The notes: generated by a model from the sequence alone, not told the origin. Shown: positions 10,294 through 52,267, counted from the stretch's first letter. The stretch: DNA of 64,000 nt from Hirschia sp. (GCA_002709235.1 PAQI01000010.1:200278-264277), one strand, 5' to 3'. Program-made: numbers and translations.

Positions 10294-10378
10294 GCGGCCG
10301 TGGCGGAATTGGTAGACGCGCAGCGTTGAGGTCGCTGTGGGGCAACCCGTGGAAGTTCGAGTCTTCTCGGCCGCACCA
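10294..10378 (+). tRNA. tRNA-Leu (anticodon GAG)
   Basis: The 85 nt cloverleaf has acceptor stem gcggccg/cggccgc, a D-loop, an anticodon loop ttGAGgt, a long variable arm, TPsiC GTTCGAG and a 3' CCA. Confidence 0.9.
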
Positions 10379-11840: not shown

Positions 11841-11956
11841 CCACACACCCGGCCTCGAACTTGCAACCATCAGGCGAGAAACGCCTCATCCAGTACCGTA
11901 ATATGATAGTGGATGGGCGAGTGTATCGTTTGGTGTCAAAAAGGGTCGGGTCGGGT

Positions 11957-13360: not shown

Positions 13361-13424
13361 GAGTCGGCTTAGAGGCTAAACTGACTGGCGCTACCTCCGG
13401 AATGCAGGACCAAGGGCCAAAACC

Positions 13425-14081: not shown

Positions 14082-14113
14082 CCGCCACGGATTGCAGCTG
14101 GCAGACCGACTCT

Positions 14114-14590: not shown

Positions 14591-14794
14591 GTGGCGGTTC
14601 CTTATTGTCGAAATTAGCGTGCGTTGAGGCCAACAGGCTCCTGCCATATGGCGGCGCACGATGTGAAATGGCATCAATTGGTGCCAAACTCTCTTGGCAC
14701 AACACTCGCCCCGGGGGACAAGCCTTGTTATAGAGCCCACTTCGCAAACAGACGCGCCAGTTCGTGGCGCAGTTCCCGGCTAAAAAGAAAAAAG

Positions 14795-35192: not shown

Positions 35193-35525
35193 TTAGCCGT
35201 TTGAATTGCGCTCCTGCATGGCCACATCCAGTTGTGGGGAAGCGATCTGGTTCACCGCATTGGCAACAGTGGCCTGTGTACACGCTTTCATCTGACGAAA
35301 TTCAGTAGCTGTCAGACGAACATGGCCATTGGAGCAGACCCGGCGAGCTTCAGCTTCGATGTCTTTCAACACCTGCTCTGCGCCATCGGAAGTGGAGAGT
35401 TGCTCACGGCTGAATTTGAATTCGTTCGATTTTACATCCTGAGCAAATGCAGGTGCTCCAAGAAGAGCGGTTGCACCAAGAGCTGCAGCGATGATGCGGG
35501 CGGTGTTGGCTTTGAAAGTTGTCAT
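35193..35525 (-). CDS. UrcA-family small secreted protein (probable)
   Basis: A signal peptide (MTTFKANTARIIAAALGATALLGAPAFAQ) and two Cys residues are present. The size (~110 aa) fits UrcA-like proteins. The start was chosen at the internal Met, since the track ORF is extended to GTG 35711. The start coordinate may be off by 1 nt. Confidence 0.4.
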   Translation of the reverse strand: MTTFKANTARIIAAALGATALLGAPAFAQDVKSNEFKFSREQLSTSDGAEQVLKDIEAEARRVCSNGHVRLTATEFRQMKACTQATVANAVNQIASPQLDVAMQERNSNG

Positions 35526-35844
35526 GATTTTATGTTCCTTTTTCTTTTCCAGTTTTATGTTCCACCCGCTCGATATGCGCTTTGAGGGAAAGCGCCCTTT
35601 CGAGTAGGGGTGACCTCGAAAGACAATGAATAATTGTTGTTTTTCGATAAAATAGTCAAGACTATCGATAAACGATAAATGCGTGCTTTGTGAAAAATCA
35701 CGGAAAATCACAGGGTTAGCAGCGAAAAAAATTTTCCGTTTATCGATAAATTTGAGGCTCGAAGCCTGTTTGGCGTGAAATTCCTGTGCAGGAAAGTCGC
35801 AAACCGGGTCGCTAGGCGGGCCCCGATTGCGTTAACCTTGGCCA

Positions 35845-38117: not shown

Positions 38118-41100
38118 TTAGCTCGTCAGGAAGTAGTCATCTGTGTGAGCGAACATGCCGCCGGCGTCACCGCCATACAGTGCATCCAGAACCTGAAGGT
38201 CACTTTCAAAGACTGGCATAACAGTGCCCGTCGCGAAGGATTGACCAAGGTCGGTGATCATCTGCACGGAGGAGACATCCGCACGCTGACCGAAGGCTGC
38301 ATCCAGCAGGAAGTCAGATGGTCCACCAGTTTGCTGACCTGCGTCACTGGAAGAGCTGCTGTCTGCGGAGCTGGACCTGGCCATTGGCCCGATTGATGAC
38401 ATCGCCGACGAGGCCGGGGAGCTTGGTGCCTCGTAGAAGAACACGGCGGTCCCTTCAGCTGTATCACCTTCATCATCCTGAATGACATATTGGAAGGTGA
38501 TCGGGTTTGCAGAGAAGTCATAGTTCGGTGCGGTGAAGGTGAAGTCACCATTCGATGACAGTGTCAGCGTTCCTTCGCTTACCCATTGGCTTGGGTAGAG
38601 GAAGGTGACCGTACCACCATCAGGGTCGAAGTCAGCTCCATTGCCATTGTCGGCCAGTACATTTCCACTGACTGAACCACCAGCGCTGAGGTAGAACTCG
38701 TCATCCACAGCTATCGGCAACACATCAACCGGTTCGACAGTGAAGGTCGCAACAGCCGTGCTGGTCTCCGCACCATCGGTCAGCGTGTAAGTGAATGTGT
38801 CTTCACCGTAATAGCCGACAGCCGAGGTGTAGGAAATTGCACCCGTTTCGTCGATTGTCACACTACCACCATTTGCAGTGGTCCCGGAGGCTGCGACGAC
38901 CGAGATGGCATCGCCATCAATGTCGAAATCAACACCATTGCCATTGTCAGCCAGGACGTTGAACGCATTGGTCGTTCCATCGCCAGGTACTGTGAAGGCA
39001 TCGTCCACGGCAGTTGGTGCATCATTGACGGGCGTAACCGCAATGGTGACCACTTGAGTGACCTGAGAATTGGCTTCACCGGCACCATCATCGAAGACCA
39101 GCGTGGCAGCGACAGGGCCTGTAAAGTCTGCTGGTGGCGTCCAACTCAATGGCTGGCCGCGATCCACTACAATGGTCTCGTCAGCAATACCCGAGATTTC
39201 CGGATAGGTCAGCGTTATGGTGAGGTTGACCTCGTCTCCATCAACATCAGACGTATAGGCATCCAGATAGGCATTGATTTCAGCAACCGTTGCGTCGACA
39301 GGCGTATCTTCTTCCGTTGGCAGGATAAGGCCAGTCAGATCAGCAACCACAGGTGCATCATTGACAGGAAGAACCGTGAGCGTGGCCTGCTTCGTGGTCG
39401 ACAATTCACCGTCATCAGCCAGGACCGTCAGGGTGATGTCACCATTATAGTCCTGAGGCGGTGTCCAGCTGAAGTCTTCAGCCGGGTTCACGACAATGAC
39501 TTCTTCTGCCAGTCCGCTCTCGACCGGATATGTGAAGGTCAGGGAAACGGTAACGACGTCCCCATCAACATCAGCAACCAGTGCACCAAGATAAGCCTGG
39601 ATTTCCGCCGGAGTGGCTTCAACCGTTTCGTCTTCGTCGAGTGTCAGGTCGAGACCTGAGAGATCGGCGATGACCGGTGCATCATTGACATTGGTGATGT
39701 TCAGCGTCTGCGTCACATTTTCCAACAGTCCTGATTTTCCATCCGAAACAGTGTAGGTCAGCGTCAGTGCACCTGTGAAGTTCTGGGTGGTGACAACTGT
39801 GTAGCTTCCATTGCGATTATCAACGACACCGCCATTGGAAGAGGAAATCGACGTGATCTGCATCGCGTCACCTTCCGGGTCAGTCAGTCCCTCAAGCAAT
39901 TGTGCTTCGGAAACAACCGTTGGTGTGTCTTCGATACCATTGGTCAACACTGCGGTTGGTGTGCCCGTTGGTCCCTGGTTGGTGTCAGGGATGGAGAGCG
40001 TGAAGGTGACAGGTGTACTGTCGACTTCACCGTCATTGGCAGTGATCGTGATGTCGAACTCACCCCAGAGGTCAGGGTCAGTCGGGTTGATGGTCAGCGT
40101 GGAACCGTCCAGCGTTGTGAACAGTGCAGCCTGACCAGCTGTCAGGGTGAAGCTCAGGTCATCGCCATCGATGTCGAAGAAGGCTGAGTCAAGATTGATG
40201 GCAATCTCGGAGTTCAGATCCAGCGCGAAATCGAACAGGTAGCCCTGTGGTGCCGAGTTTGGCGGCAGGGTTGTGACCGTGATGTCAGCATCGACAGAGT
40301 CTTCGCCATCTGTTGCCGTAATGGTCAGTTCGAAATCGCCAGCATTGGCCGGGTCAATCGTCAGTGTCGCACCATCAAGAGTTGCGACAGCTGCATCTGC
40401 TCCACCCAGTGAGAAGGTGAGAGCATCTGAATCAGCGTCAGAGAAGAAGTTGTTCAGATCGATGACAAGTGGCTCACCCAGATCCATGGTCAGGTCACCA
40501 AGCGTGGTTTCCGGAGCATTGTTGGGGAAGTTGGCCGTGACGTTGAAGATGACAGGCTCGCTGTCCACAGCACCATCATTGGCAGTGACGGACAGTCCGT
40601 AAGTGCCGACTGCCTGCGGGTCGATGGTCAGCGTGGAGCCGTCCAGTGACGCAATTGCAGCACCTCCACCAGAGAGGCTGAAGGTCATTTCGTCGCCATC
40701 AGCATCCGTGAACAGGGTCAGCAGGTCGAGAACAACCGGCGTGCCGATTGTGGCGTTGACATCGTCAATGTCACCGGTCGGAGCTGAATTGTCTGGAGCA
40801 GCCGTGACCGTGAAGCTCACCGGATCACTGTCGTCTTCACCGTCATTCGCTGTGACAGTGAGTTCAAAGTCACCAGCTGTTTGTGGGTCGAGTGTCAGTG
40901 TAGAGCCGTCCAGGGATGCAATAGCAGCACCTGCACCCGATACCGAGAACGTCAATGCATCACCATTGGCATCGGTGAACAATGTCGACAGGTCCAGCAC
41001 AACCGGCGTGCCGATTGTGGCGTTGACGTCGTCAATGTCACCTGTCGGAGCAATGTTTGCTTCTTCAGCCGTGACGGTGAAGGAGACAGGAGCACTGTCT

Positions 41101-44100
41101 GCCGTGCCATCATTGGCAGTCACGATCAGCTCGAAATTGCCTTCGACAAACGGATCGATTGTGAGGGTTGATCCGTCGATTGAAGCAATCGCTGCACCTG
41201 CTCCAGACAGGCTGAAGGTCAGGGCGTCACCGTCGACATCCGTGAATACGGTTGTCAGGTCAATGATGACCGGTGTGCCCAGTTCAGCAGTCACGTCGTC
41301 AATGGATCCGGTTGGGGCCGTATTGGGTGGCGTGGTTTCGCCAACTGGGGTGAATGTCAGCTTGTCGACACGTGCCCATTCAGCATTGTCACGCGCCCCT
41401 GTGATCTCGATGACGTCGCCGTTCTCGATCTCAAGACCTTCCACCGTGTAGGTCATCAGGCTGCCAGCATTTGCAGCATTGGAACCTGTGTCTGTGTTCA
41501 TGACGATCGTGGCCACGAGCACACCATCGACGCGGATCTCCAGAGGAGACTGGCCGTCGGCTTCGTCGAAGACTGCAAGATCGAGGTCGAACGTGCCGTT
41601 GTCACCAGCCCATGTGTACATCATGGTTCCGGTCGTTGGCGAACCTTCAACTGTTCCAGTGAACAGGCCAGCATATTCGCCGCCAGAAGCTGCTGCGCTC
41701 GTTTCGACGACATAGCCGTCGAGAACCAGGTCTTCAGCTTCGATTACGACAGGCTCACCAGTCGGAGTTGGTGTCGGCGTGGTCAATTCGCCGGTCTGGG
41801 CGAAAGCCAGCTTGTCGATACGAACTTCTTCATTGTTGTTCTTTGTACCAACCAGTTCGATTACATCACCCGTACGCAGTTCCAGACCTGGGATCGGAAA
41901 CTCCTTGAGCGTGCCGCTGGTCATGTAACCGGCGGATGTGGCTCCATCCATGTCGATGGTGGCAACCAGTTCGTCATTCACAAAAATGTCGATGGAGGCT
42001 GCGCCATCATTTTCGTCAAAGGCCGAGAGGGTCAGCGTGTAGACGGCATCGCCACCAGCAAATGTGTAAGCCAGCGTGCCTTCTGTTGCGCCGCTGTTGA
42101 ACAGCGATGCAACTGCACCTTCAGATGCCAGGCCGGTGTTCTCGACGATGAAGCCTTCAGCGATGATGCTTTCGGCCTCGACTTCGAAGGTTTCACCAAC
42201 GGGTGTTGGCAGGGTAGCGGAGACAGTGAAGGTAACAGGCGCGCTGTCCACTGTGCCGTCATTGGCTGTCACGGTCAGGGCGAAATCGCCTGCTGCGGCT
42301 GGGTCGATGGTCAGTGTGGAACCATCAATGGAACCAGCGGCTGCACCTGCACCAGAAAGCGTGTAGGTGAGGGCGTCACCGTCAATGTCGCTGAATGCTG
42401 CATCCAGATCGATGGTGATGGGTGTGCCGACGACCGCGTCAACATCTGCAATGTCACCGGTTGGTGCCGTGTTGGTTGGTCCTGGCGTGCCGTCAATCGG
42501 CGTGAAGGTCAGCGTGTCGATACGTACCCACTCATCGGCATTTTGCGTCGCCGCGATCTGGATCGTGTCGCCAGCTTCAAGGCTGAGACCAGCGATGGTG
42601 AAGTCCAGCAGATTGCTGGCTTTCATGCCGCCAGAGTTTGTCGAATTGTTCATCGTGATGGTCTGGACCAGCGAGCCATTGACCAGGACATCGAACGAGC
42701 TTGCACCGTCATTCTCATCAAAGGCTGCGATCGTCAGGTCATATGTGCCCTCACCACCAGCGAATGTGTAGGCGAGCGTGCCGGATGTGTTGCCACTGTT
42801 CAGCAGCGACGCGACCTGGCCATCGGAGGCCGGCGAAGAGTTCTCGACAATGAAGCCATTGGCGATGATGTCTTCGGCTTCAACAACAATCGTGCTGCCA
42901 CCTGCAACTGGAGCCGTTGCAGACACTGTGAAGGTCACAGGCGCACTGTCGACCGTGCCGTCATTTGCCGTGACAGTGATGTCATAGCTGCCTGCCGCAA
43001 AGGCGTCGACCGTAAGCGTTGATCCATCAAGGCTAGCAATCGAGGCCCCTGGACCAGAGATCGAGAATGTCAGCGCATCGTCGTCCGCGTCAGTGAAGAG
43101 CGTGGAGAGGTCAAGTGTGACAGGTGTACCGACAACAGCGTTTACGTCAGCAATGTCGCCTTCTGGTGCGGTGTTGGTCGGGGTTGGAGCCGGGGTGGTG
43201 TCACCTTCAGGTGTGAAAGTGAGCTTATCGACACGTGCCCATTCTGCGTTGTCGCGGTTACCCGTGATTTCGACAATGTCACCTGATTCCAGCGAGAGAC
43301 CGGCAACCGAGTAGGTGATCAGGCTGGCTGCATTGGCAACGCCCGAACCCGTGTCAGTATTCATAGAGACAGTTTCGATCAGGACGCCATTCACGCGGAC
43401 CTCGAGGGTCGAGTTACCGTCTGATTCGTCAAACACATCCAGGTAGAGCGTGTAGTCGCCTGCACCGCCTGTGAATGTGTAGGTCATGGTGCCTGTCGTT
43501 GGCGAACCTTCAACCGTACCGGTGAACAGTCCGGCATATTCGCCACCGGAAGCAGCACCGCTGGTTTCTACCACATAGCCATTCAGGACCAGGTCTTCAG
43601 CTTCCACAACAATGGATTCGCCCGTAGGGGTTGGAGCCGTTGCAGACACTGTAAAGGTCACAGGTGCGCTGTCGACCGTGCCGTCATTTGCCGTGACGGT
43701 GATGTCGAAGCTGCCTGCTGCCGAAGCATCGAGAGTCAGTGTCGAACCATCAAGGCTAGCAATCGAGGCGCCTGGACCAGAGATCGAGAATGTCAGCGCA
43801 TCGTCATCCGCGTCAGTGAAGAGCGTGGAGAGGTCAAGCGTGACGGGCGTGCCGACAACAGCGTTTACGTCAGCAATGTCGCCTTCTGGTGCGGTGTTGG
43901 TCGGTGTCGGAGCCGGTGTGGTGTCACCTTCAGGTGTGAATGTCAGCGTGTCGATACGAACCCATTCATTGGCGTTCTGTGTCGCCATGATCTGAACGAG
44001 GTCGCCAGCTTCCAGGCTTAGGCCGGTAACTGTGAAGTCGAGCAGGTTGCTGGCTTTCAGTGCGCCAGAGCCCGTTGCGTTGTCCATTGTAAGCGTTTGA

Positions 44101-44834
44101 ACGAGCGTGCCATTGACCAGGACGTTCAGCGTGCTTGCGCCATCGTTTTCGTCAAAGGCTGCAATGGTCAGTGTGTAGTCACCTGTTCCACCGCCAAATG
44201 TGTAGTTGAGCGTGCCGGAAGTGCCGCCACTGTTCAGCAGGGACGCAACCTCACCGCCTGATGCCAGGCCAGTTGCCTCGACGACAAAACCGTTGGCAAT
44301 GATGCTTTCCGCTTCAATGACGAGGGGCTCGGCTGAAGGTGTGGGGGTAGGCGTAGGAGCTGGTGTTGGGGTGACTTCACCCAGCGGTGAAAAGGTCAGC
44401 TTGTCGACGCGCGCCCATTCAGCAAGGTCTCTGGAACCGGTGATCGTGATCACGTCACCGAATTCAAGGTCCAGGTCGTTGAGTGTGTAGGAAATCAGGG
44501 ACGTTGCGGACACACCACCATCACCGGTGTTGGTGTTCATCACAACCGTGTCGATCAGTGTGCCATTGATACGCACTTCAAGAGGCGAGGCACCGTCGTT
44601 CTCGTCATAGACAAAAAGCTCCAGATCATAAGCACCGTCGCCACCTTCAAATGTGTAGGTGAGTGTTCCGGATGTCGGAGAGCCGTCGACTGAGCCATTG
44701 AACAGGGAGGCATAGGAGCCACCTGAGGCTGAGCCGTGGTCCGCGACCACATATCCATTTGTGATAATGTCTTCGGCTTCAATAGTAAGAACGCCGGTTG
44801 CTTCGTCAATTGAGCTTATTGTGCCGTCGGCCAT
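38118..44834 (-). CDS. Giant secreted repeat protein with novel beta-module repeats, cadherin-like/Ig domains, VCBS-like repeats and a shared C-terminal domain
   Basis: The 2238 aa protein has six ~145 aa modules of the form IEAEDxxxNGxVVE..ASGG..A.LxN...GTLxYTF.GG.G.YDL.L..FDE.DG.S.L.V.VNG.L....M......NAEWARVDKLTF. These are separated by PT linkers and about 9 ~90 aa domains of the form NTAPxGDIxDVxAxxGTPVxLDLSxLFTDADGDALTFS.SGxGAxIASLDGSTLTxDP..AG.F.LTVTANDG..DS.PV.F.V.A, typical of dystroglycan-type cadherin-like (putative Ig) domains. PVNDAP-type repeats follow, then a Ser-rich linker and a ~110 aa C-terminal domain. The ORF is continuous in the six-frame track, and its shadow ORFs on the + strand were rejected. 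Confidence 0.85.
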   Translation of the reverse strand: MADGTISSIDEATGVLTIEAEDIITNGYVVADHGSASGGSYASLFNGSVDGSPTSGTLTYTFEGGDGAYDLELFVYDENDGASPLEVRINGTLIDTVVMNTNTGDGGVSATSLISYTLNDLDLEFGDVITITGSRDLAEWARVDKLTFSPLGEVTPTPAPTPTPTPSAEPLVIEAESIIANGFVVEATGLASGGEVASLLNSGGTSGTLNYTFGGGTGDYTLTIAAFDENDGASTLNVLVNGTLVQTLTMDNATGSGALKASNLLDFTVTGLSLEAGDLVQIMATQNANEWVRIDTLTFTPEGDTTPAPTPTNTAPEGDIADVNAVVGTPVTLDLSTLFTDADDDALTFSISGPGASIASLDGSTLTLDASAAGSFDITVTANDGTVDSAPVTFTVSATAPTPTGESIVVEAEDLVLNGYVVETSGAASGGEYAGLFTGTVEGSPTTGTMTYTFTGGAGDYTLYLDVFDESDGNSTLEVRVNGVLIETVSMNTDTGSGVANAASLITYSVAGLSLESGDIVEITGNRDNAEWARVDKLTFTPEGDTTPAPTPTNTAPEGDIADVNAVVGTPVTLDLSTLFTDADDDALTFSISGPGASIASLDGSTLTVDAFAAGSYDITVTANDGTVDSAPVTFTVSATAPVAGGSTIVVEAEDIIANGFIVENSSPASDGQVASLLNSGNTSGTLAYTFAGGEGTYDLTIAAFDENDGASSFDVLVNGSLVQTITMNNSTNSGGMKASNLLDFTIAGLSLEAGDTIQIAATQNADEWVRIDTLTFTPIDGTPGPTNTAPTGDIADVDAVVGTPITIDLDAAFSDIDGDALTYTLSGAGAAAGSIDGSTLTIDPAAAGDFALTVTANDGTVDSAPVTFTVSATLPTPVGETFEVEAESIIAEGFIVENTGLASEGAVASLFNSGATEGTLAYTFAGGDAVYTLTLSAFDENDGAASIDIFVNDELVATIDMDGATSAGYMTSGTLKEFPIPGLELRTGDVIELVGTKNNNEEVRIDKLAFAQTGELTTPTPTPTGEPVVIEAEDLVLDGYVVETSAAASGGEYAGLFTGTVEGSPTTGTMMYTWAGDNGTFDLDLAVFDEADGQSPLEIRVDGVLVATIVMNTDTGSNAANAGSLMTYTVEGLEIENGDVIEITGARDNAEWARVDKLTFTPVGETTPPNTAPTGSIDDVTAELGTPVIIDLTTVFTDVDGDALTFSLSGAGAAIASIDGSTLTIDPFVEGNFELIVTANDGTADSAPVSFTVTAEEANIAPTGDIDDVNATIGTPVVLDLSTLFTDANGDALTFSVSGAGAAIASLDGSTLTLDPQTAGDFELTVTANDGEDDSDPVSFTVTAAPDNSAPTGDIDDVNATIGTPVVLDLLTLFTDADGDEMTFSLSGGGAAIASLDGSTLTIDPQAVGTYGLSVTANDGAVDSEPVIFNVTANFPNNAPETTLGDLTMDLGEPLVIDLNNFFSDADSDALTFSLGGADAAVATLDGATLTIDPANAGDFELTITATDGEDSVDADITVTTLPPNSAPQGYLFDFALDLNSEIAINLDSAFFDIDGDDLSFTLTAGQAALFTTLDGSTLTINPTDPDLWGEFDITITANDGEVDSTPVTFTLSIPDTNQGPTGTPTAVLTNGIEDTPTVVSEAQLLEGLTDPEGDAMQITSISSSNGGVVDNRNGSYTVVTTQNFTGALTLTYTVSDGKSGLLENVTQTLNITNVNDAPVIADLSGLDLTLDEDETVEATPAEIQAYLGALVADVDGDVVTVSLTFTYPVESGLAEEVIVVNPAEDFSWTPPQDYNGDITLTVLADDGELSTTKQATLTVLPVNDAPVVADLTGLILPTEEDTPVDATVAEINAYLDAYTSDVDGDEVNLTITLTYPEISGIADETIVVDRGQPLSWTPPADFTGPVAATLVFDDGAGEANSQVTQVVTIAVTPVNDAPTAVDDAFTVPGDGTTNAFNVLADNGNGVDFDIDGDAISVVAASGTTANGGSVTIDETGAISYTSAVGYYGEDTFTYTLTDGAETSTAVATFTVEPVDVLPIAVDDEFYLSAGGSVSGNVLADNGNGADFDPDGGTVTFLYPSQWVSEGTLTLSSNGDFTFTAPNYDFSANPITFQYVIQDDEGDTAEGTAVFFYEAPSSPASSAMSSIGPMARSSSADSSSSSDAGQQTGGPSDFLLDAAFGQRADVSSVQMITDLGQSFATGTVMPVFESDLQVLDALYGGDAGGMFAHTDDYFLTS

Positions 44835-45324
44835 GGTAGATCCCCACCCTAGGTAAGATACTGAACAATTGACGCCAAAATCTCATGTTAGGGAATTGTT
44901 TACTACCTGATTCAACTCGATGGTGTGCAAATAATATGTATTTCCGGTAATATACCTTTTGACGCGAATATTAGGCATATTGCTTAACCCTAACAGGGAA
45001 AATGAATGCCTGTTGGTTTATGAAAATATAATATAATTCAGTAATTTAGATGAAAATTTACTGCTAATTATTTGGAATGGGGGTGGTTATTGTTAATTCT
45101 CCATAAATGCGTTTAACGTCGATCAAATACTCCCGTCAGGTTGAGTTTATAACGTATAAATCTCCTGCTGAGTGAAGAGGCTTGTGCTCTTTACATTAAA
45201 GGTCTGGAGACAGTTTTCCATATGCGGGTTTGAGGGCGGAACTGGTCTGATCATTGCTAGATAGGACCGACAGGATGCAACCGTTTCGCCCCGTTGGGGA
45301 ATAAACACTCGCGTCCTCCGATTA
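44835..45324. promoter_or_regulatory. AT-rich divergent promoter/regulatory region between the two giant genes
   Basis: The 490 bp region is markedly AT-rich (about 35% GC vs about 58% in the window; eyeballed, not computed). It contains many A/T tracts and lies between divergently transcribed giant ORFs. Confidence 0.4.
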
Positions 45325-48300
45325 TTGAGCCATTGCGGTACGTGGAGGTACATTGGCATGAGTGAGATCGCTGATATCGGCACCGGGCTGACCGAGGTTG
45401 AGACGCTTACGCTCTCGGGAAGCTATGAAGTCGAGACAGTAACCGGGGCATCTGGTGGTGCCGTGGTGCAAACTCTCAGCGATGTGAGTGCAGGCCAGGC
45501 TATAGGTATCTTTAATGGTGCCGCAGGTACTTATGAGTTCACAATAAACTATATAGACGGCGCAAACGGTGCCTCTGATATTGTTGTGCTGGTCAATGGC
45601 GGCGCAGTTCACTCCTGGGCAGCCAATGGTACCGCAGGCGCAGCCAGCGAAGTTTTCCAGCTCGAATTGTCACCCGGCGACGAGATCTCGATCTCCGGTG
45701 TCAAGGATGGCGATGACCTGGCGCGTCTGGACTCGATCAACCTGTCTCCGGTTGGTACGATGACCGAGCCAGCGAGTTTCACAATCGAAGCCGAGGATAT
45801 TATCGGTGCCGGATATGTCGTGGAAACCTCCACCAAGGCATCAGGCGGAAAACTGGCATCGCTCTTTGACGGCTCGACAGCAAATTCTGCCACCTCCGGC
45901 ACGCTTAGCTACACATTCGACCAGACCGCAGGCATCTACGATCTTGATCTGACCGTTTTCGACGAGTCCGATGGCGCATCGACAATTGATGTGCGGGTCA
46001 ATGGCGAACTTATCACGACATTTACACTCGATGCACCGACCAGCTCGGCTGGTGTGTCGAACAACAGCAGACTTGTCTACTCCGCCGAAGGGTTGGAGCT
46101 GCAGGCAGGCGATTTGATCGAATTAACAGGCAATCAGGACAGTGGCGAATGGGCACGTATCGACAAGCTCGACTTCGTCGCCATTGAGGGAATCATGACC
46201 AGCGAACCGACAACAACAGAACTACCATCCAGCGAAACAGCATCAAGCGGTCCGACGCCGACCAGTAGCGCGCTGGCAGCAGGTGATCTGATCATCGGCC
46301 TGAATGAAGCCGAGGACATGCTCTTGTCCGGCGGTTACACGGTGGAAAACAGTGCGATCTATGCCAATGGGCAAGGCGTTCAAAATGCAGATGTCGGCCA
46401 GACCGTCGGCACCATTGAGGGCACTTTCACGGGCGCTGCCGGTGACTATGAACTGACGGTCGCATATTATGACGAAAGCGATGGAGAAGCTGACTACATC
46501 CTGCTGATCAATGGCTCTGCCGTTGACAGCTGGAGCGGTACTGGCGGCACGTCCATTGAAGGCGACAGGGTAGAACGCACGATTTCTGTCACGCTGACGG
46601 GCAATGACACCATTGAAATCGCAACCCACCGCAATGACAATGGCGAACTGGCACGCATCGACTCCATCGCAATCGAGTCTGCATCCACAACACCAACACC
46701 AACGCCGACTCCCACGCCTACGCCTACACCGACCCCAGCGCCTACACCGACAGGCGAACCGGTTGTTGTGCAGGCTGAAGACATCATCAGCGGCGCTGGT
46801 TATGTGGTTGAAACACACAATGCGGCTGCGGGTGGTGAATTTGCCTCGCTCTTCAACGGCACGGTCGCCAACTCGGCCAGTTCCGGCAAGTTGAGCCACA
46901 CCTGGACAGGTGACACCGGCACTTACGAACTCGTCCTGGATGTCTTTGATGAAGCCGACGGCAATTCCACATTGGAAGTCCGCGTGAATGGCGTCCTGAT
47001 CGACACGGTCACGATGGACACCAACACGAATGTGAACGGCTATAACGCCAACAACCTGATCTCCTACACGGTCGAGGGACTTTCGCTCACATCCGGTGAT
47101 GTTGTTGAAATCACAGGTAACCGCGAGAACGCCGAATGGGCGCGCGTGGACCAGTTGACATTCAACCCTGTCGACACCGGCACACCGACTCCCACGCCAA
47201 CCCCTACACCGACGCCAACGCCGACAAACACGCCGCCAGAAGGCGACATCAATGACGTCAACGCTGTTGTCGGTACACCGGTCACCATTGATCTGGACAG
47301 CCAGTTCAGCGATCTGGACGATGATGCACTGACATATGTCCTGTCCGGCTCCGGCGCATCTGTCGCAACCTTGAACGGCTCGACACTGACCATTGATCCT
47401 TCGGCAGCAGGCAATTACACGCTGACCATCACTGCCAATGACGGCACCGACGACAGCGCGCCTGTGACCTTTACAGTATCTGCGACGTCGCCCACGCCGA
47501 CCAGCGGCCCGATCATCCTCGAAGCAGAGGACATGATCTCCAATGGCTTCGTGATCGAGAACACATCAGTGGCCTCCGAAGGCCAGGTTGCATCCCTGCT
47601 GAATTCCGGTGGAACAACCGGAACGCTGTCTCACACCTTTGCAGGTAGCGCAGGCACCTATGACCTGACAGTGGCCGCATTTGATGAAAATGACGGCGCT
47701 GCAACAATCGATGTTCGTGTGAATGGCGTGCTGATCGACACCATTTCGATGGACAACAACACTTCCTCCGGTGGTCTGAAATCCTCCAACCTGCTCGACT
47801 TCACCGTTTCCGGCCTCGAACTTGAAGCAGGGGATGTTGTCGAGCTGATCGGACATCAAAACTCAGGCGAATGGGTGCGCATCGATACGGTCACGTTCGA
47901 AGGTGTCGCCGGTTCACCAACTCCGACACCGACACCCACGCCGACGCCAACGCCGACCCCCACACCGACGCCTCTTCCTGAGCCTTTCGAGGTTGAAGCA
48001 GAATCCATCATCTCCAGCGGTTTCATCGTGGAGAACACCGGTCTGGCATCAGATGGCAAGGTTGCGTCCCTGTACAATAGTGGCGCAACACAAGGCACGC
48101 TGGCTTACACATTTGCTGGTGGCGATGCCGTCTACACACTGACCCTTTCCGCCTTTGACGAGAATGATGGTGCAGCCACTATCGACATTCTGGTCAATGA
48201 CGAACTGGTCGCAACCGTCGACATGGATGGGGCAACGTCAGCTGGCTATATGACCAGCGGCACGCTCAAACAGTTCGAGATCCCAGGTCTGGAACTGCGC

Positions 48301-51081
48301 GCAGGTGACGTGGTTGAGCTCGTCGGTACCAAGGACAATTTCGAGGAGGTCCGCATCGACAAGCTGGCCTTCGCTCCTACCGGCGAACTGTCGACACCAA
48401 CTCCAACCCCCACGCCAACACCTACGCCGACTCCAACGCCAACCGGCGAGGCAATCTCGATCGAAGCTGAAGACATGGTGCTCAATGGCTATGTCATCGA
48501 AACCCATGCAGCAGCCTCGGGCGGCGAATATGCCGGCCTGTTCAATGGCTCGGTTGAAGGTTCGCCAACAACCGGAACCATGTCTTACACCTGGACGGGC
48601 GGAAATGGCACGTTCGACCTTGACCTTGCAGTCTTCGACGAAGCGGATGGTCAGTCTCCTCTGGAAATCCGCGTCGATGGTGTGCTTGTGGCAACGATCG
48701 TCATGAACGCCGACACGGGTTCCAACGCGGCCAGCGCAGCCAGCCTGATCACCTACACGGTGGAAGGCCTGGAGATCCAGAACGGCGACGTCATCGAGAT
48801 CACGGGTTCCCGTAACAACGCTGAATGGGCCCGCGTCGACAAGCTGACCTTCACACCGGTTGGCGAAACCACGCCGACACCAACCCCAACTCCCACCAAT
48901 ACACCTCCAGAAGGTGACATTGATGATGTGGATGCGGTTGTGGGCTCGCCGGTCGTGATCGATCTGGATGCTCAGTTCAGTGATCTGGACAATGATGACC
49001 TGACCTATTCGCTCTCCGGTTCAGGCGCATCCATTGCCACGCTGAACGGCTCCAATCTGACGCTTGATCCTTCGTCCGCGGGTACCTACACGATTACCAT
49101 CACGGCCAATGACGGTTCGGACAACAGTTCGCCCGTCACCTTCACGGTGAGCGCAACGGATCCTGTCGTGACGACCGGCCCGATCGTGCTGGAAGCCGAA
49201 GACATTATTGCTTCTGGTTTCATCGTGGAAAACTCGAACCCTGCATCGGGCAATCAAGTGGCCTCGCTGCTGAATTCCGGCGCAACCACAGGCACGCTCA
49301 GCTACACCTTCGCAGGTGCAGATGGCGATTATGACCTGACATTGGCGGCGTTCGATGAGAGCGATGGCAATTCTACAGTGTTGATCCGTGTGAACGGTTC
49401 TACCGCCGCGACCATCAACTTGGATGGAAACACCAGTTCCGGCGGCATGAGCTCTGGAAACCTGCTCGACTTCACGGTCTCCGGACTGGCGCTGTCGACG
49501 GGAGATCTCGTTGAAATCGTGGGTAGCCAGAACGCTGATGAGTGGGTGCGTCTCGACACCGTGACCTTCACACCTCTGGATACCACCCCAACACCAACTC
49601 CAACCCCGACGCCAACTCCCACACCGACGCCAACGCCGACCTCTTCAGTCGATATCGGGGTGGGAACAACGCAAGCGGAAGTGCTGGAATTGTCCGGTGG
49701 TTACCAGACAGAAAACAAGACCAATTACACAAATGGTGCAGGTATCCTGAACCTGGCCAATATTGGTGAAACGGCCACGGCTTCGGGTGCTTTTACGGGT
49801 AATTCAGGTGCCTATGACATCACCGTCACCTATCTGGATGAAAGCGACGGTGAGGCCAGCTGGTCATTGCTCGTCAACGGTGTTGCGGTGGATAGCTGGA
49901 ATGGTACAGGCGGCTCCAACGCCACCGGTACACCAACAGAACGCTCCATCCTTGTCGATCTGGACCCAGGCGATGTCGTGACCGTCAGCGGTACACGCAA
50001 CGACAATGGCGAAATGGCGCGCATCGACAAGATCAACATCCAGGCACAGCAAGTCCCTGGTCTGATCTCTACCGATGTCGACTACTTCGTCTTTGCCGGT
50101 CAATCGAATGCAGAACGCCACTTCTACCGTGCGAGCGGCGACAACAGCACGGGTGATCTGGGGGCTGATGTCTTCGAGCAGACCATCACAAACCTGACAG
50201 GCTACAACACAACTGCAATCGAAGCGGCCAAGGGTGGTTCCGGGTCGAACGAAAATGCAGACCCTGACAGCTATTGGTGGAACCTGGCCACGGACCAGCC
50301 AGGTCCTGAGCTGATCGCAGCGATCAACACGATCAATGCGACGCTCGGAGCCGGTAAGGATATCGATGGTATCATCTGGTCTCAGGGTGAAGATGATGCC
50401 CGCGCCATGACCAGCGCCAGCGGTAATGCCGAGCAGGTGATTGCGGACCTCAAGACAGCCACGACCAAGGTGTTTGAATATTTCTGGTCGATCTATGGCG
50501 AGGATGTTCCGATCTTCATCCAGGAAATCGGTGATTTCCCGGAAGGTTCAGGCTTCTATTCCGATGGTCCCGTCGGTGCCCTTGAACTGGTTCGGCAGGC
50601 CCAGCAGGAACTGATTGCAGAACTGGACAATGTCTATTTCGGTGCAAGCACTGACGGTGTTGAGCAGTTTGGTGACATTCACTTCTCCGTCGCCGGATAT
50701 GGCGATATCGCAGAAGATCTCGCTGACTCTGTTGTCGACTACCTCACGCCGGGTTCCTCCACCTCGTCCATGCAGTCATTTGCAAGAGTGGCAGAACCCA
50801 CGTCAGAGAGCGCCGAGCAATCAGAATCGACGTCATCTTCTGATGGTGGACATGGTGAGTTTGCCTATATGGGAGGGGCCGGAACCGATGGGTTCCTGCT
50901 GACCAACACCAATGCGTTCGACACGCTTCCGGTATTCGTGCCGAAGACTCAGGTCGCTGAATCGCCCGATCTGGGCGGTGGGGGCGCAATGACGTTCACG
51001 CCGATGGCTGACATTTTCAGCGCAGAAGGCATGGATTTCGATCTGGGTGGAAGCCAGAACGACGACTGGTACATCATCTGA
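45325..51081 (+). CDS. Giant secreted repeat protein with novel beta-module repeats, cadherin-like domains and a C-terminal SASA/DUF303-type SGNH carbohydrate esterase domain
   Basis: The 1918 aa protein may start at ATG 45358 (MSEIADIG). It is built from two module types (an A-type like gene 1 and a B-type, LSGGYxxEN...G.FTG..G.YD.TV.Y.DESDGE....L.NG.AVDSW.GTGG...ARID.I.I) plus cadherin-like domains and PT linkers. The C-terminus (about 50050-50760) carries the GQSN, IIWSQGEDDA and DIHFS motifs of a sialate-O-acetylesterase-like SGNH hydrolase. After that comes a Ser-rich linker and a ~100 aa terminal domain homologous to that of gene 1. Confidence 0.85.
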   Translation: MSHCGTWRYIGMSEIADIGTGLTEVETLTLSGSYEVETVTGASGGAVVQTLSDVSAGQAIGIFNGAAGTYEFTINYIDGANGASDIVVLVNGGAVHSWAANGTAGAASEVFQLELSPGDEISISGVKDGDDLARLDSINLSPVGTMTEPASFTIEAEDIIGAGYVVETSTKASGGKLASLFDGSTANSATSGTLSYTFDQTAGIYDLDLTVFDESDGASTIDVRVNGELITTFTLDAPTSSAGVSNNSRLVYSAEGLELQAGDLIELTGNQDSGEWARIDKLDFVAIEGIMTSEPTTTELPSSETASSGPTPTSSALAAGDLIIGLNEAEDMLLSGGYTVENSAIYANGQGVQNADVGQTVGTIEGTFTGAAGDYELTVAYYDESDGEADYILLINGSAVDSWSGTGGTSIEGDRVERTISVTLTGNDTIEIATHRNDNGELARIDSIAIESASTTPTPTPTPTPTPTPTPAPTPTGEPVVVQAEDIISGAGYVVETHNAAAGGEFASLFNGTVANSASSGKLSHTWTGDTGTYELVLDVFDEADGNSTLEVRVNGVLIDTVTMDTNTNVNGYNANNLISYTVEGLSLTSGDVVEITGNRENAEWARVDQLTFNPVDTGTPTPTPTPTPTPTPTNTPPEGDINDVNAVVGTPVTIDLDSQFSDLDDDALTYVLSGSGASVATLNGSTLTIDPSAAGNYTLTITANDGTDDSAPVTFTVSATSPTPTSGPIILEAEDMISNGFVIENTSVASEGQVASLLNSGGTTGTLSHTFAGSAGTYDLTVAAFDENDGAATIDVRVNGVLIDTISMDNNTSSGGLKSSNLLDFTVSGLELEAGDVVELIGHQNSGEWVRIDTVTFEGVAGSPTPTPTPTPTPTPTPTPTPLPEPFEVEAESIISSGFIVENTGLASDGKVASLYNSGATQGTLAYTFAGGDAVYTLTLSAFDENDGAATIDILVNDELVATVDMDGATSAGYMTSGTLKQFEIPGLELRAGDVVELVGTKDNFEEVRIDKLAFAPTGELSTPTPTPTPTPTPTPTPTGEAISIEAEDMVLNGYVIETHAAASGGEYAGLFNGSVEGSPTTGTMSYTWTGGNGTFDLDLAVFDEADGQSPLEIRVDGVLVATIVMNADTGSNAASAASLITYTVEGLEIQNGDVIEITGSRNNAEWARVDKLTFTPVGETTPTPTPTPTNTPPEGDIDDVDAVVGSPVVIDLDAQFSDLDNDDLTYSLSGSGASIATLNGSNLTLDPSSAGTYTITITANDGSDNSSPVTFTVSATDPVVTTGPIVLEAEDIIASGFIVENSNPASGNQVASLLNSGATTGTLSYTFAGADGDYDLTLAAFDESDGNSTVLIRVNGSTAATINLDGNTSSGGMSSGNLLDFTVSGLALSTGDLVEIVGSQNADEWVRLDTVTFTPLDTTPTPTPTPTPTPTPTPTPTSSVDIGVGTTQAEVLELSGGYQTENKTNYTNGAGILNLANIGETATASGAFTGNSGAYDITVTYLDESDGEASWSLLVNGVAVDSWNGTGGSNATGTPTERSILVDLDPGDVVTVSGTRNDNGEMARIDKINIQAQQVPGLISTDVDYFVFAGQSNAERHFYRASGDNSTGDLGADVFEQTITNLTGYNTTAIEAAKGGSGSNENADPDSYWWNLATDQPGPELIAAINTINATLGAGKDIDGIIWSQGEDDARAMTSASGNAEQVIADLKTATTKVFEYFWSIYGEDVPIFIQEIGDFPEGSGFYSDGPVGALELVRQAQQELIAELDNVYFGASTDGVEQFGDIHFSVAGYGDIAEDLADSVVDYLTPGSSTSSMQSFARVAEPTSESAEQSESTSSSDGGHGEFAYMGGAGTDGFLLTNTNAFDTLPVFVPKTQVAESPDLGGGGAMTFTPMADIFSAEGMDFDLGGSQNDDWYII
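46687..46752 (+). repeat. Pro-Thr linker-encoding microsatellite-like tract (ACNCCN)n
   Basis: The tract acaccaacaccaacgccgactcccacgcctacgcctacaccgaccccagcgcctacaccgaca encodes TPTPTPTPTPTPTPAPTPT. Similar tracts occur at about 47170-47225, 47918-47973, 48395-48445, 48870-48900 and 49590-49645, and in gene 1 (for example 44290-44350). Confidence 0.8.
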
Positions 51082-52039: not shown

Positions 52040-52267
52040 TCAGAAGCGAAAAGGGCTCTTGCCCGGTCCGGTCTCAAAACCTGCCAGGTTCATCAGATGG
52101 GCCACGATCAGCAGGCTGAAGACGACCGGAATGAACGACAATAATCGCCACGGCACCATTCGCGGTTCGGGTGTGTCATTGGGCTTTCCGGCCTTCCAGC
52201 TACAGAACTGGAACCCGGCAACACCAAGAGCGATGCCGATAATACTCAGCACGATTTCGACGATCAT
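52040..52267 (-). CDS. Small two-TM membrane protein (hypothetical)
   Basis: The 75 aa protein has two hydrophobic helices. Its start overlaps the stop of the upstream GT2 gene by 4 nt (ATGA-type coupling). Confidence 0.35.
   Translation of the reverse strand: MIVEIVLSIIGIALGVAGFQFCSWKAGKPNDTPEPRMVPWRLLSFIPVVFSLLIVAHLMNLAGFETGPGKSPFRF

Follow-up and report, generated by a model that had tools for sequence, protein, structure and literature searches.

A divergent pair of giant genes with CBM35-like repeat modules in a marine alphaproteobacterium: a candidate adhesin and a predicted polysaccharide acetylesterase

The gene pair and its parts

Two giant genes lie back-to-back in a 64-kb stretch of DNA (the window) from an uncultured marine alphaproteobacterium, and are transcribed divergently from a 0.5-kb spacer. 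Gene 1 (38118-44834, minus strand) starts with ATG and encodes 2238 aa. Gene 2 (45325-51081, plus strand) would encode 1918 aa from a TTG start; an ATG at 45358, giving 1907 aa, is the likelier start because it is preceded by GGAGG. GC content falls to 0.315-0.325 at 44900-45199 within the spacer, compared with about 0.55 in the flanks. Both ORFs, with exact coordinates, and the shared AT-rich region had been described in a first-pass annotation of this DNA, and our results agree. The minus strand of the spacer has three sigma-70-like sites where 1.5 would be expected, an excess without significance. An Rfam search of the spacer gave no match at E<=1, and the idea of a riboswitch or another known RNA there was dropped. 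The features of the locus are as follows.

38118..44834, minus strand: gene 1, with six CBM35-like modules, eight He_PIG-type Ig domains, a cadherin/Big_9/'tandem-95' array, a Ser-rich linker and a tail
44376..44789, minus strand: gene 1 module 1, A type (aa 16-153; phmmer E 1.3e-53)
43923..44339, minus strand: gene 1 module 2, A type (aa 166-304; phmmer E 1.1e-44)
43644..43904, minus strand: gene 1 Ig-like domain 1, He_PIG/dystroglycan-type cadherin-like (aa 311-397; local HMM 119; Pfam He_PIG/Big_9)
43200..43628, minus strand: gene 1 module 3, A type (aa 403-545), the copy used for the structure model
42921..43181, minus strand: gene 1 Ig-like domain 2 (aa 552-638; local HMM)
42498..42899, minus strand: gene 1 module 4, A type (aa 646-779; phmmer E 5.7e-39)
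42219..42479, minus strand: gene 1 Ig-like domain 3 (aa 786-872; local HMM)
41790..42203, minus strand: gene 1 module 5 (aa 878-1015; phmmer; inverted DNA repeat I2)
41337..41765, minus strand: gene 1 module 6 (aa 1024-1166; phmmer; inverted DNA repeat I1)
39993..41330, minus strand: gene 1, five tandem He_PIG-type Ig domains (aa 1169-1614; local HMM 95-118; direct DNA repeats D1, D2)
38430..39983, minus strand: gene 1 cadherin-like/Big_9/'tandem-95' array (aa 1618-2135; Pfam and NCBIfam)
38121..38429, minus strand: Ser-rich linker of gene 1 leading into its C-terminal tail (...HTDDYFLTS), a putative signal for type I secretion
44835..45357, no strand: AT-rich divergent promoter region, assigned from the GC dip
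45325..51081, plus strand: gene 2, with three B and six A modules, two Ig domains, (PT)n linkers, a predicted SASA/SGNH esterase and a tail
45391..45756, plus strand: gene 2 module B1, B type (aa 23-144; phmmer E 4.7e-9)
45775..46179, plus strand: gene 2 module 2, A type (aa 151-285; phmmer E 1e-42)
46303..46671, plus strand: gene 2 module B3, B type (aa 327-449; phmmer E 1.2e-13)
46747..47169, plus strand: gene 2 module 4, A type (aa 475-615; phmmer E 9.3e-56)
47221..47481, plus strand: gene 2 Ig-like domain 1 (aa 633-719; local HMM 123)
47497..47901, plus strand: gene 2 module 5, A type (aa 725-859; phmmer E 3.5e-39)
47977..48387, plus strand: gene 2 module 6, A type (aa 885-1021; phmmer E 7.3e-34)
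48439..48867, plus strand: gene 2 module 7, A type (aa 1039-1181; phmmer E 3.9e-66)
48892..49152, plus strand: gene 2 Ig-like domain 2 (aa 1190-1276; local HMM 120; Pfam Big_9, PKD, He_PIG)
49180..49575, plus strand: gene 2 module 8, A type (aa 1286-1417; phmmer E 4.8e-37)
49702..50040, plus strand: gene 2 module B9, B type (aa 1460-1572; phmmer E 1.4e-12), immediately 5' of the esterase
50080..50748, plus strand: gene 2 predicted SASA/SGNH carbohydrate acetylesterase domain (aa 1586-1808; Pfam, motifs, AF2, Foldseek)
50749..51078, plus strand: Ser-rich linker of gene 2 leading into its C-terminal tail (...TDGFLL...NDDWYII), a putative signal for type I secretion

Module copies were located using phmmer with a single module (gene 1 aa 403-545) as query. 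Gene 1 contains six copies of about 140 aa each (E 1.8e-31 to 7e-90) and gene 2 contains nine, of which six are A type (E 7e-34 to 4e-66) and three belong to a divergent B type (E 5e-9 to 1e-13); the repetition, 15 copies in both genes together, is far above chance level. The earlier count of about six for gene 1 is the same as ours, and the B variant it proposed for gene 2 exists, while its figure of 7-8 copies for that gene was wrong. Ig domains and (PT)n linkers are interleaved with the modules, as had been described; the He_PIG/Big_9/cadherin-like Ig domains occur in eight clean copies in gene 1 and two in gene 2. Gene 1 is matched in Pfam by Big_9 (214 bits), Cadherin_5 (181 bits) and He_PIG (27.8 bits), and in NCBIfam by the tandem-95 repeat NF012211 (228 bits against a cut-off of 90). 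The best stretches within its array are aa 1619-1713 (Cadherin_5), 1937-2032 (Big_9) and 1635-1724 (NF012211). This array had been overlooked in the first-pass annotation.

The two genes share an inverted DNA repeat (41329-42209 and 47965-48875, 80-84% identical). Module 5 of gene 1 is 86% identical to module 6 of gene 2, and module 6 of gene 1 is 87% identical to module 7 of gene 2. A recombination 'shufflon' between the genes was dropped as an explanation: the inverted block is just 80-84% identical and therefore points to old paralogy, with no active switch. Whole-protein Pfam matches of the two genes to SH3_2 (58.9 bits), DUF6805, GldM_3rd, BcsB, PapC_N and BiPBP_C were rejected as artefacts because they sum weak matches to the repeated 'GDxIEITG' and to Ig strands; most of these families have no individual stretch above cut-off. 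Only distant cadherin-repeat matches were returned for gene 1 among GTDB species representatives, and gene 2 had no match in JGI metagenomes.

The repeat module: fold, homology and family

An AF2 model of gene 1 aa 403-545 was obtained at pLDDT 93.6 and pTM 0.87. Foldseek searches of the PDB placed CBM6E (8j3x), MiXBM (7ehg), CBM35 (2w47) and CBM36 (7ay3/1ux7) at the top, with probability 1.0 and TM of about 0.7, and the beta-jelly-roll of the model superimposes on solved CBM35, CBM6 and CBM36 members. Remote homology was examined with a profile of 53 diverse family modules searched against 177,635 sequences. The profile matched CBM35 (2vzp, E 1.8e-4), the CITase CBM35 (3wnp, E 3.9e-4) and, over the full length, CBM36 (1w0n/1ux7, E 2.6e-4 to 3.2e-4); this sequence homology to CBM35 and CBM36 is significant yet marginal. 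In the profile alignments the EAE and the last-strand Asp of the modules align with those of CBM36. We take the E-x-E of the first strand and the last-strand Asp to form the structural Ca2+ site in CBM6, CBM35 and CBM36.

Curated libraries barely register this relationship. CBM_35 was matched by three of the 15 window modules (best E 7e-4, below the gathering score) and CBM_6 by two (best E 0.087); among the 53 diverse family modules the corresponding numbers were two (best 1.3e-4) and one (3e-3). Whole-protein Pfam scans of gene 1 and gene 2 reported neither CBM_35 nor CBM_6, NCBIfam matched neither the modules of the window nor those of the wider family, and no description of the module was found in a literature search for the motif FDENDG and for the architecture. 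Family members carry NCBI names derived from other domains only. By its profile matches and modelled fold, the module is a divergent branch of the CBM6/CBM35/CBM36 jelly-rolls that has no model in the curated libraries.

The first-pass annotation was right that no curated Pfam or NCBIfam model names the module, and its guess of a carbohydrate-binding beta-sandwich is consistent with the predicted fold. Its view of the module as a new, orphan family does not hold, as fold and profile place it within the CBM6/CBM35/CBM36 superfamily, and malectin, PA14 and laminin-G, which it had suggested for comparison, are not the fold. We downgrade the claim rather than reject it, because neither a confident Pfam or CAZy match nor a published account of the two-gene architecture emerged from the Pfam and literature searches. 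The proposal of megaproteins built from a new module was partly sound: the modules are real, and the esterase, the cadherin arrays and the type I-like tails had been left out.

The consensus given earlier is essentially correct, with EAE, ASGG, FDExDG and E..R.D invariant or nearly so. Across family modules, E9, A10 and E11 are kept in 92-98% and D134 in 100%. The aromatic residues that usually make up the binding platform of a CBM are conserved only in part: residue Y18 is aromatic in 92%, and W87 is Trp in 62% and missing from the A-type copies of the window. Two loops, near residues 34-44 and 90-102, account for most of the difference between the subtypes, and the first of them lines up with the CBM36 ligand loop that contains Tyr40.

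Compared with CBM35 (Amycolatopsis CsxA 2vzp, Paenibacillus Xyn30D 4qb1, PF16990), the module has about 20% identity, under the Pfam gathering score. An invariant (Y/F)FDExDG takes the place of the CBM35 'RYANG' strand-loop, E..R.D is present before and into the last strand, and the modules form arrays of up to 11 copies in proteins without a signal peptide. CBM36 (Paenibacillus xylanase 43A, 1ux7/1w0n) and CBM6 (S. degradans CBM6E, 8j3x) share only one acidic residue and the Trp of the loop with the module; this Trp is missing from B-type and most family modules, and the Pfam models give no match at threshold.

With clustering at 50% identity, HMMER places 1596 cluster representatives in the module family at E<=1e-10 and 2386 at E<=1e-3. 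The family is already abundant in public data. One module searched against a word index of 5.8 billion proteins gave no matches, which reflects a limit of the word index, since exhaustive HMMER returned thousands. The family occurs in marine Alphaproteobacteria and cyanobacteria. Among 51 members scanned, partner domains included a GDSL/SGNH esterase (10/51), RTX repeats (9/51) and cadherin/Big_9 (4-5/51), as well as polysaccharide lyase, GH5, beta-helix and PA14 domains, and some members had a T9SS sorting domain. If the modules bind glycans, a name and likely function would follow for a domain in well over 1000 protein clusters, mostly of marine Alphaproteobacteria and cyanobacteria, whose proteins are now annotated merely as 'cadherin-like', 'Ig-like', 'GDSL esterase' or 'hypothetical'.

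Predicted esterase domain, probable export route and genomic neighborhood

The C-terminal part of gene 2, overlooked in the first-pass annotation, matches Pfam SASA (PF03629) with 31.4 bits when scanned alone and 25.8 in the full-length protein (gathering score 24.8). It carries the motifs FAGQSNA, GGSGSN, WSQGEDD and GDIHF. In an alignment of seven sequences, the core residues of GQSN, GGS(G)SN and QGE(D/N)D are invariant in all seven, including G64, S65, Q113, G114, E115 and D117, and a D-x-H motif ahead of the last helix is kept in all six that reach that far. By analogy with the family, the Ser in GQSN would be catalytic, with Gly/Asn blocks for the oxyanion and an Asp/His block towards the C-terminus. 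An AF2 model of the domain (pLDDT 84.4) retrieved 1zmb (TMq 0.71, E 3e-8), 2apj, CE2 esterases, SIAE and the N4 gp65 domain with Foldseek, and its fold is of the SGNH alpha/beta/alpha type. By motifs and modelled fold, the gene 2 C-terminus is predicted to be an intact SASA/SGNH carbohydrate acetylesterase domain, and homologues likewise place a B module ahead of it. SASA/SGNH esterases (PF03629; 1zmb, a putative acetylxylan esterase; sialate O-acetylesterases) have the GQSN, GGS, QGExD and D-x-H blocks and the SGNH fold in common with gene 2, and the esterase-like domain of the phage N4 tail sheath gp65 (9lc0) aligns with it at E 4e-14. The gene 2 domain differs from any solved or named enzyme in its identity (<=30%) and in its fusion to nine CBM-like modules. 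A phage origin was considered and dropped, as the matches in phage genomes, annotated 'tail carbohydrate esterase', are just about 26% identical.

By inspection, the N-termini MADGTISSIDEATGVLTIEAED and MSEIADIGTGLTEVETLTLSG have no basic/hydrophobic leader, and the first module begins at about residue 16 in gene 1 and about 12 residues past the ATG in gene 2. At the other end, both proteins close with a Ser-rich linker and then a tail whose residues turn from acidic to hydrophobic; TDDYFLTS (gene 1) and NDDWYII (gene 2) resemble DDDFLA, DDLFLTS and DDFVIL of relatives. The missing signal peptides and the similarity of the tails had gone unremarked in the first-pass annotation. Type I secretion signals are uncleaved and C-terminal, often with an acidic residue and then hydrophobic residues at the extreme end. 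The two proteins lack a signal peptide and have tails suggestive of such a signal, and therefore are most likely type I secretion substrates. RTX nonapeptides (GGxGxDxUx, by regular expression) numbered none in gene 1 and one in gene 2, and Pfam HemolysinCabind matched neither; at least two RTX repeats occur in 28 of 150 family relatives. No ABC transporter or HlyD-type (membrane-fusion) gene was found among the scanned ORFs of the window, where a TolC-like OEP gene at 11861-13360 was the sole secretion-type component found. This is weak counter-evidence because type I ABC/MFP genes are frequently unlinked from the genes of their substrates, and one-step export by a system encoded elsewhere in the genome is the most likely route that we infer from these sequence features.

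Short homologues occur in an exopolysaccharide context. An 802-aa relative consisting of four B modules and an esterase, without a signal peptide, lies between a priming sugar transferase and two GT4 genes in a Wzx/Wzy-type cluster (locus L011). In Hyphomonas beringensis (L005), the module-esterase gene is cut by the contig end and is followed by two GT4 genes, a 569-aa gene, a 341-aa gene and a flippase, an order that matches L011 on this downstream side. Homologues at three further loci (L007, L016, L017) adjoin glycosyltransferase or sugar-nucleotide genes; no sugar genes lie near the esterase homologue at L018. In the window, the DNA downstream of the pair has a synthase-type GT2 at a distance of 1.2 kb and an AT3-SGNH acetyltransferase at 9 kb. 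A conserved neighbor of about 550 aa (unannotated proteins in the window, L005 and L007) was dropped, as these proteins are mutually unrelated.

Proposed function and comparison with known systems

We consider it probable, on sequence and model evidence, that both proteins of the pair are secreted, one being a multivalent adhesin that binds glycans and the other a polysaccharide O-acetylesterase targeted by its CBM-like modules. The modules keep the EAE...D positions of the superfamily, a candidate Ca2+ site, and add an acidic loop of their own, (Y/F)FDExDG. Once outside the cell, the gene 1 protein, with its six modules and about 13 cadherin/Ig-like domains, could act as a Ca2+-stiffened polysaccharide-binding adhesin or matrix cross-linker. 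The nine modules of gene 2 would hold the SGNH/SASA esterase on a polysaccharide from which it would remove O-acetyl groups; the cell's own exopolysaccharide or capsule is the most likely substrate, and algal or other foreign glycans are the alternative. The recurrent linkage of module and esterase within exopolysaccharide clusters points to extracellular de-O-acetylation as a testable step, one that may tune the stickiness or solubility of capsule, holdfast or biofilm polymer.

More tentatively, and with less than even probability, the module may represent a new CBM family, sister to CBM35, CBM36 and CBM6, through which SGNH esterases and adhesins exported by type I secretion are tethered to the O-acetylated exopolysaccharide of the producer. 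Its signature would be EAE...(Y/F)FDExDG...E..R.D, and binding would probably be Ca2+-dependent. The whole might form a matrix-editing system like the Rhizobium Rap/Ply proteins with a different lectin fold, of which the giant pair could be an expanded version with several specificities (subtypes A1, A2, A3 and B).

The same architecture might instead serve to attach to and de-acetylate algal or phytoplankton glycans for nutrients or attachment, which we regard as rather unlikely. Solved CBM35, CBM6 and CBM36 modules are mostly appendages of enzymes for the breakdown of plant or algal glycans, some family members have the lyase, GH5 or T9SS sorting domains mentioned above, the lineage is marine, with matches in TARA and marine metagenomes, and the giant pair itself lies outside any complete exopolysaccharide biosynthesis cluster in the window. 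Against this, the closest esterase-bearing relatives lie in or beside polysaccharide biosynthesis, not degradation, at no fewer than four independent loci (at least four), and no glycoside hydrolase, TonB-dependent receptor or sugar-uptake gene adjoins the pair in the window.

It is less probable still that the modules are non-lectin, Ca2+-stabilized spacers that extend or stiffen an adhesin, the CBM-like fold being a relic. Ig-like extender domains lengthen and stiffen RTX adhesins, the most conserved positions of the module (EAE, DExDG, D134) are acidic, Gly or core hydrophobic, a pattern typical for structural Ca2+ sites, many copies stand in tandem, and many relatives are RTX/cadherin-type adhesins. 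Against this, the modules fall into distinct subtypes that differ mainly in two loops, one of which aligns with a CBM36 ligand loop. The modules are also recurrently joined to single catalytic domains in short proteins (four modules and an esterase in 800 aa), which is classic CBM usage, and the He_PIG/cadherin domains between them already serve as spacers.

We give a similarly low standing to the idea that the SGNH/SASA domain of gene 2 and its short relatives is a polysaccharide O-acetyltransferase (like AlgX, AlgJ, PatB or the SGNH half of OatA/OafA), with the modules holding nascent polymer. The exopolysaccharide clusters of the short relatives also contain an Acyl_transf_3 membrane acyltransferase, an AT3-SGNH acetyltransferase gene is present in the window 9 kb downstream of the pair (60394-62367), and AlgX is reported to combine an SGNH-like domain with a CBM (PMC4148444). 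The domain is nevertheless matched by Pfam SASA, a family whose characterized proteins are esterases, it is closest in fold to acetylxylan and sialate esterases, and known SGNH transferases reach the periplasm via Sec, whereas the gene 2 protein has no signal peptide. Binding of a protein or cell receptor, as by Cry toxin domain III, with the genes encoding toxins or contact-dependent effectors, is highly improbable, as Cry matches rank well below CBM35, CBM6 and CBM36, Pfam recognizes no pore-forming or toxin catalytic domain in either gene, and the partner domains are an esterase and adhesin repeats.

Taken as an adhesin and an esterase, the pair is a fairly ordinary type of secreted polysaccharide-handling surface protein: esterase, cadherin-like arrays and type I-like tails are a familiar design of alphaproteobacterial matrix and adhesin proteins. 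CBM-targeted esterases and giant Ca2+-dependent adhesins are well known already, and no concept is changed. Giant RTX/'tandem-95 repeat' adhesins of the LapA/MpIBP/FrhA type share with the pair large size, lack of a signal peptide and ligand-binding modules, sugar-binding ones included, and share with gene 1 long arrays of Ig/cadherin-like Ca2+-binding repeats (NF012211, 228 bits). Unlike them, the pair has no RTX nonapeptide repeats, no recognized N-terminal retention module and no adjacent ABC/MFP/LapG-type genes found.

The Rap proteins of Rhizobium leguminosarum are small, about 25-60 kDa, and the glycanases PlyA and PlyB are secreted by PrsDE alongside the RapA lectins and RapD. The Rap/PrsDE system of R. 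leguminosarum follows the same logic as that proposed here, in which a type I system exports both lectin domains and polysaccharide-modifying enzymes. The cadherin-like Rap lectins leave the cell through PrsDE, a type I system, and attach to the acidic exopolysaccharide of the same bacterium (PMC5061743); they are extracellular alphaproteobacterial proteins, lack a signal peptide, have cadherin-like Ca2+-binding domains and take part in remodeling of the biofilm matrix (PMC5061743, PMC9298526). The cadherin-like domain is itself the lectin in the Rap proteins, whereas the candidate lectin of the giant pair is the CBM35-like jelly-roll, in proteins of about 200 kDa with an SGNH esterase.

Two divergent giant genes and their chromosomal setting

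Two long divergent ORFs had been described in the first-pass annotation, and both are present exactly where it placed them:

38118-44834, minus strand: gene 1, ORF of 2238 aa with an ATG start
45325-51081, plus strand: gene 2, ORF of 1918 aa counted from a TTG codon

An ATG at 45358 of gene 2 is preceded by GGAGG and yields a protein of 1907 aa; this codon is likelier than the TTG to be the start. GC content is 0.315-0.325 at 44900-45199, in the intergenic spacer, versus ~0.55 around both genes, and a search of the spacer for known RNA elements found none.

The window is an ordinary segment of an alphaproteobacterial chromosome. RecQ is encoded upstream of gene 1, and downstream of gene 2 lie genes for DUF599, a synthase-type GT2, a GGDEF-EAL protein and an AT3-SGNH acetyltransferase.

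Further features of the window
10294-10375: single tRNA gene upstream of mgtE (Rfam RF00005, 52 bits)
11861-17722: TolC-like, DUF2497 and ValS genes
35193-35711, minus strand: UrcA family ORF of 172 aa (NCBIfam TIGR04433, 46.9 bits against a cut-off of 25)
52264-53739, minus strand: synthase-type GT2, resembling PgaC and CelA at scores far below their cut-offs
54985-57375, plus strand: PAS-GGDEF-EAL protein
57376-58149, minus strand: ORF of 257 aa, no Pfam or NCBIfam match
58161-59816, minus strand: ORF of 551 aa, no Pfam or NCBIfam match, with hydrophobic stretches resembling membrane segments
62555-63076: IS200-like Y1 transposase (Pfam Y1_Tnp, 24.3 bits against 23)

TolC-DUF2497-ValS is the usual alphaproteobacterial arrangement. 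The ORF of the UrcA family (named for uranyl) lies directly upstream of RecQ, the adjacent 257-aa and 551-aa ORFs sit between the GGDEF-EAL gene and the AT3-SGNH acetyltransferase, and the transposase is the sole mobile-element-like gene seen in the window. Together, the GT2 and the PAS-GGDEF-EAL protein could form a c-di-GMP-linked exopolysaccharide synthase module beside the giant genes. A 6.4-kb ENA metagenome contig encodes a protein with 100 % identity to ValS; the next relatives of ValS (75-82 % identity) occur on metagenome contigs only, and identity to ValS of named Hyphomonadaceae (Hirschia, Henriciella) is 58-64 %. In a pattern search of 185,579 GTDB species representatives, no close relative of gene 1 was found.

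The repeat module and its family

Module copies were counted with phmmer using one module, gene 1 aa 403-545, as the query. Gene 1 carries six copies (E 1.8e-31 to 7e-90) and gene 2 carries nine: E ranges from 7e-34 to 4e-66 for its six A-type copies and from 5e-9 to 1e-13 for the three copies of the divergent B-type. The repeat reported in the first-pass annotation was thus upheld, while its copy number for gene 2 required correction to this figure. An alignment of the 15 copies reproduced the consensus proposed there and revealed E11, D67, G71, D117, R132 and D134 to be invariant. Interspersed among the modules are Ig-like domains of ~87 aa, named He_PIG, Big_9 or cadherin-like by Pfam (eight clean copies in gene 1 and two in gene 2), as well as (PT)n linkers. 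Module 6 of gene 1 is followed by five further He_PIG-type Ig domains and then by an array of ~520 aa that scores 181 bits for Cadherin_5, 214 bits for Big_9 and 228 bits for the NCBIfam "tandem-95 repeat" (cut-off 90). Giant adhesins typically carry such an array.

Modules 5-6 of gene 1 and modules 6-7 of gene 2 share 86-87 % protein identity, and this two-module block is encoded by an inverted DNA repeat of ~0.9 kb (41329-42209 and 47965-48875; 80-84 % identity). Together, these observations show a past exchange or duplication of the block between the two genes. An active inversion switch was rejected, since the identity of the inverted repeat is too low.

Searches of whole proteins and single modules against Pfam gave no match above the gathering score on the module, and NCBIfam likewise gave no match to it. 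The only sensible weak Pfam matches were to CBM_35 (best E 7e-4, in 3 of 15 copies) and CBM_6. SH3_2, DUF6805 and the like scored high over the whole proteins, but these scores add up tiny matches to one repeated strand and were discounted.

Structural modelling shows the module as a predicted beta-jelly-roll of the CBM6/35/36 fold, an assignment that sequence also backs once family members are sampled broadly. A remote-homology profile built from 53 diverse modules matched the CBM35 2vzp (E 1.8e-4), the CBM36 structures 1w0n/1ux7 over their full length (E ~3e-4) and the CBM35 of cycloisomaltooligosaccharide glucanotransferase (E 3.9e-4). In the profile alignments, the EAE and last-strand Asp of the module coincide with the same residues of CBM36, positions which hold the structural Ca2+ in published CBM6/35/36 structures. 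Ahead of the last strand, the "RDNAEW" loop of the module is matched with "SDDGTWD" in CBM36, the Ca2+/xylan-binding loop (Asp116, Trp120, Asp121); the numbering offset of the alignment is consistent with these positions. Where CBM35 has "RYANG", the module has a near-invariant (Y/F)F-D-E-x-D-G hairpin, and E..R.D at the module end is a second mark of this branch.

An exhaustive HMMER search of 1.84 billion representatives of 50 %-identity protein clusters recovered 2386 proteins at E<=1e-3, of which 1596 pass E<=1e-10 and 430 pass E<=1e-30, with up to 11 module copies per protein. The named members belong to Pseudooceanicola, to unclassified Pseudomonadota MAGs and to several cyanobacteria (Xenococcaceae, Leptolyngbya, Aerosakkonemataceae). 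Their annotations read "cadherin-like", "Ig-like", "GDSL-type esterase" or "hypothetical" and in no case reflect the module, and Pfam CBM_35 touches only 2 of the 53 diverse modules (best E 1.3e-4). On the strength of these counts, names and sparse contacts, the module family is real, large and without a Pfam model, yet part of a well-known superfamily. Partner domains among 51 family proteins were GDSL/SGNH esterases (10), RTX repeats (9), Big_9/cadherin arrays (4-5) and beta-helices (4), with single cases of a polysaccharide lyase, GH5, PA14, a legume-lectin domain and a T9SS tail; this is the usual company of CBMs. The earlier suggestion of a carbohydrate-binding beta-sandwich was right in kind, but the fold is not new. 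Nor do the two genes represent a new protein class; they encode new, unnamed variants in which CBM35-like modules form part of adhesins and esterases built in the style of type I secretion substrates. What is gained is that a large, so far unannotated family of domains has been assigned a fold.

The predicted gene 2 esterase domain and the loci of its relatives

Gene 2 ends in a domain absent from the first-pass annotation:

50080-50748 (gene 2 aa ~1586-1808): SASA/SGNH esterase domain, by Pfam SASA, motifs and fold

Scanned alone, this domain scored 31.4 bits for Pfam SASA against a gathering score of 24.8. It contains the motifs FAGQSNA, GGSGSN, WSQGEDD and GDIHF, whose core residues do not vary among six homologues, which come from Hyphomonas, Jannaschia, Paracoccaceae and other sources. 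The predicted fold is that of an SGNH hydrolase (pLDDT 84.4), with the putative acetylxylan esterase 1zmb (TMq 0.71), At4g34215, CE2 esterases, sialate esterases and a phage N4 tail sheath domain as the nearest structures. Among solved structures, the one nearest in sequence is a domain inside the N4 "non-contractile tail sheath" gp65, at residues ~434-598 (PDB 9lc0, 9yf4/5/t; E 4e-14, 28-29 % identity); a paper on N4 does not treat this domain as an esterase. "Tail carbohydrate esterases" of E. coli myophages also match the domain, at ~26 % identity.

B-type modules followed by the esterase also occur in the family proteins P0007 (Pseudooceanicola lipolyticus, 1996 aa), P0018, P0024 and P0031. 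The genomic context of such homologues was compared at several loci, including one on a metagenome contig, L011:

8282-10690 of L011 (JGI contig Ga0207882_1000001, 2.0 Mb): module-esterase gene

The 802-aa product has four B modules with poly-Pro linkers and the esterase, without a signal peptide. Its gene has a Bac_transf priming transferase directly on one side and, directly on the other, a pair of GT4 genes, beyond which lie, on the opposite strand, an unannotated membrane-protein gene (~570 aa) and genes of 339 and 523 aa. At L005 (Hyphomonas beringensis AWFF01000037.1), the module-esterase gene is cut by the contig end; over the downstream side, which the comparison covers, gene order is the same as in L011 and includes a Polysacc_synt flippase, with an Acyl_transf_3 gene next. 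By position only, the 523-aa gene of L011, which is of flippase size, would be the counterpart of this flippase. The L011 cluster is a Wzx/Wzy-type polysaccharide cluster. Elsewhere, the neighbours of homologues are GT2 genes at L007, a sugar epimerase together with a GT1-group transferase at L016, and a UDP-GlcNAc 2-epimerase at L017; no sugar genes were found at the L018 locus. The neighbours at L011, L005, L007, L016 and L017 thus make the module-esterase unit a recurrent part of surface-polysaccharide biosynthesis loci, a link between module, SGNH esterase and exopolysaccharide clusters that is gained here.

Export and proposed function

On inspection, neither protein has a signal peptide, and the first module starts within ~15 residues of both N-termini. 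Both end in a Ser-rich linker and a tail of ~75 aa whose last residues are first acidic, then hydrophobic (TDDYFLTS in gene 1; NDDWYII in gene 2):

38121-38429: Ser-rich linker and C-terminal tail of gene 1, two-part motif
50749-51078: Ser-rich linker and C-terminal tail of gene 2, two-part motif

Relatives end in DDDFLA, DDLFLTS or DDFVIL, several with a DGFLL-like motif upstream. Comparison of both window genes with the C-termini of the family proteins P0001, P0002, P0005, P0010 and P0013 revealed a recurring tail without RTX repeats, composed of (S/T/D)(D/G)F(L/V)L ~55-65 residues before the end and a terminus like DDDFLA, DDLFLTS or DDWYII. This tail may serve as a secretion or sorting signal specific to the family. 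RTX nonapeptides were present in 28 of 150 relatives and in neither gene 1 nor gene 2. Among the ORFs scanned in the window no ABC or HlyD gene was found, and of such secretion genes it holds only the TolC-like one. The sequence evidence, still an incomplete case, points to type I secretion of both proteins.

We propose that both proteins leave the cell by this route and that their modules bind polysaccharide, probably with the involvement of Ca2+. With six binding modules on a stiff Ig/cadherin stalk, gene 1 would cross-link or anchor polysaccharide, or attach the cell to glycan-coated surfaces. Gene 2 would act as an O-acetylesterase that its nine modules keep attached to the polymer, a role already partly shown because the motifs and fold of the esterase are intact. 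The gene context of relatives suggests the cell's own exopolysaccharide as the target polymer; a foreign algal glycan is a somewhat unlikely alternative target. A role of the modules as mere spacers is improbable, and we similarly doubt that the SGNH domain is an acetyltransferase like AlgX. Toxin-like binding of receptors by the modules is very unlikely. The closest functional precedent for the mechanism proposed for gene 1 and gene 2 is the Rap system of Rhizobium, in which the PrsDE type I system secretes cadherin-like lectins that bind the bacterium's own exopolysaccharide and shape the matrix (PMC5061743).
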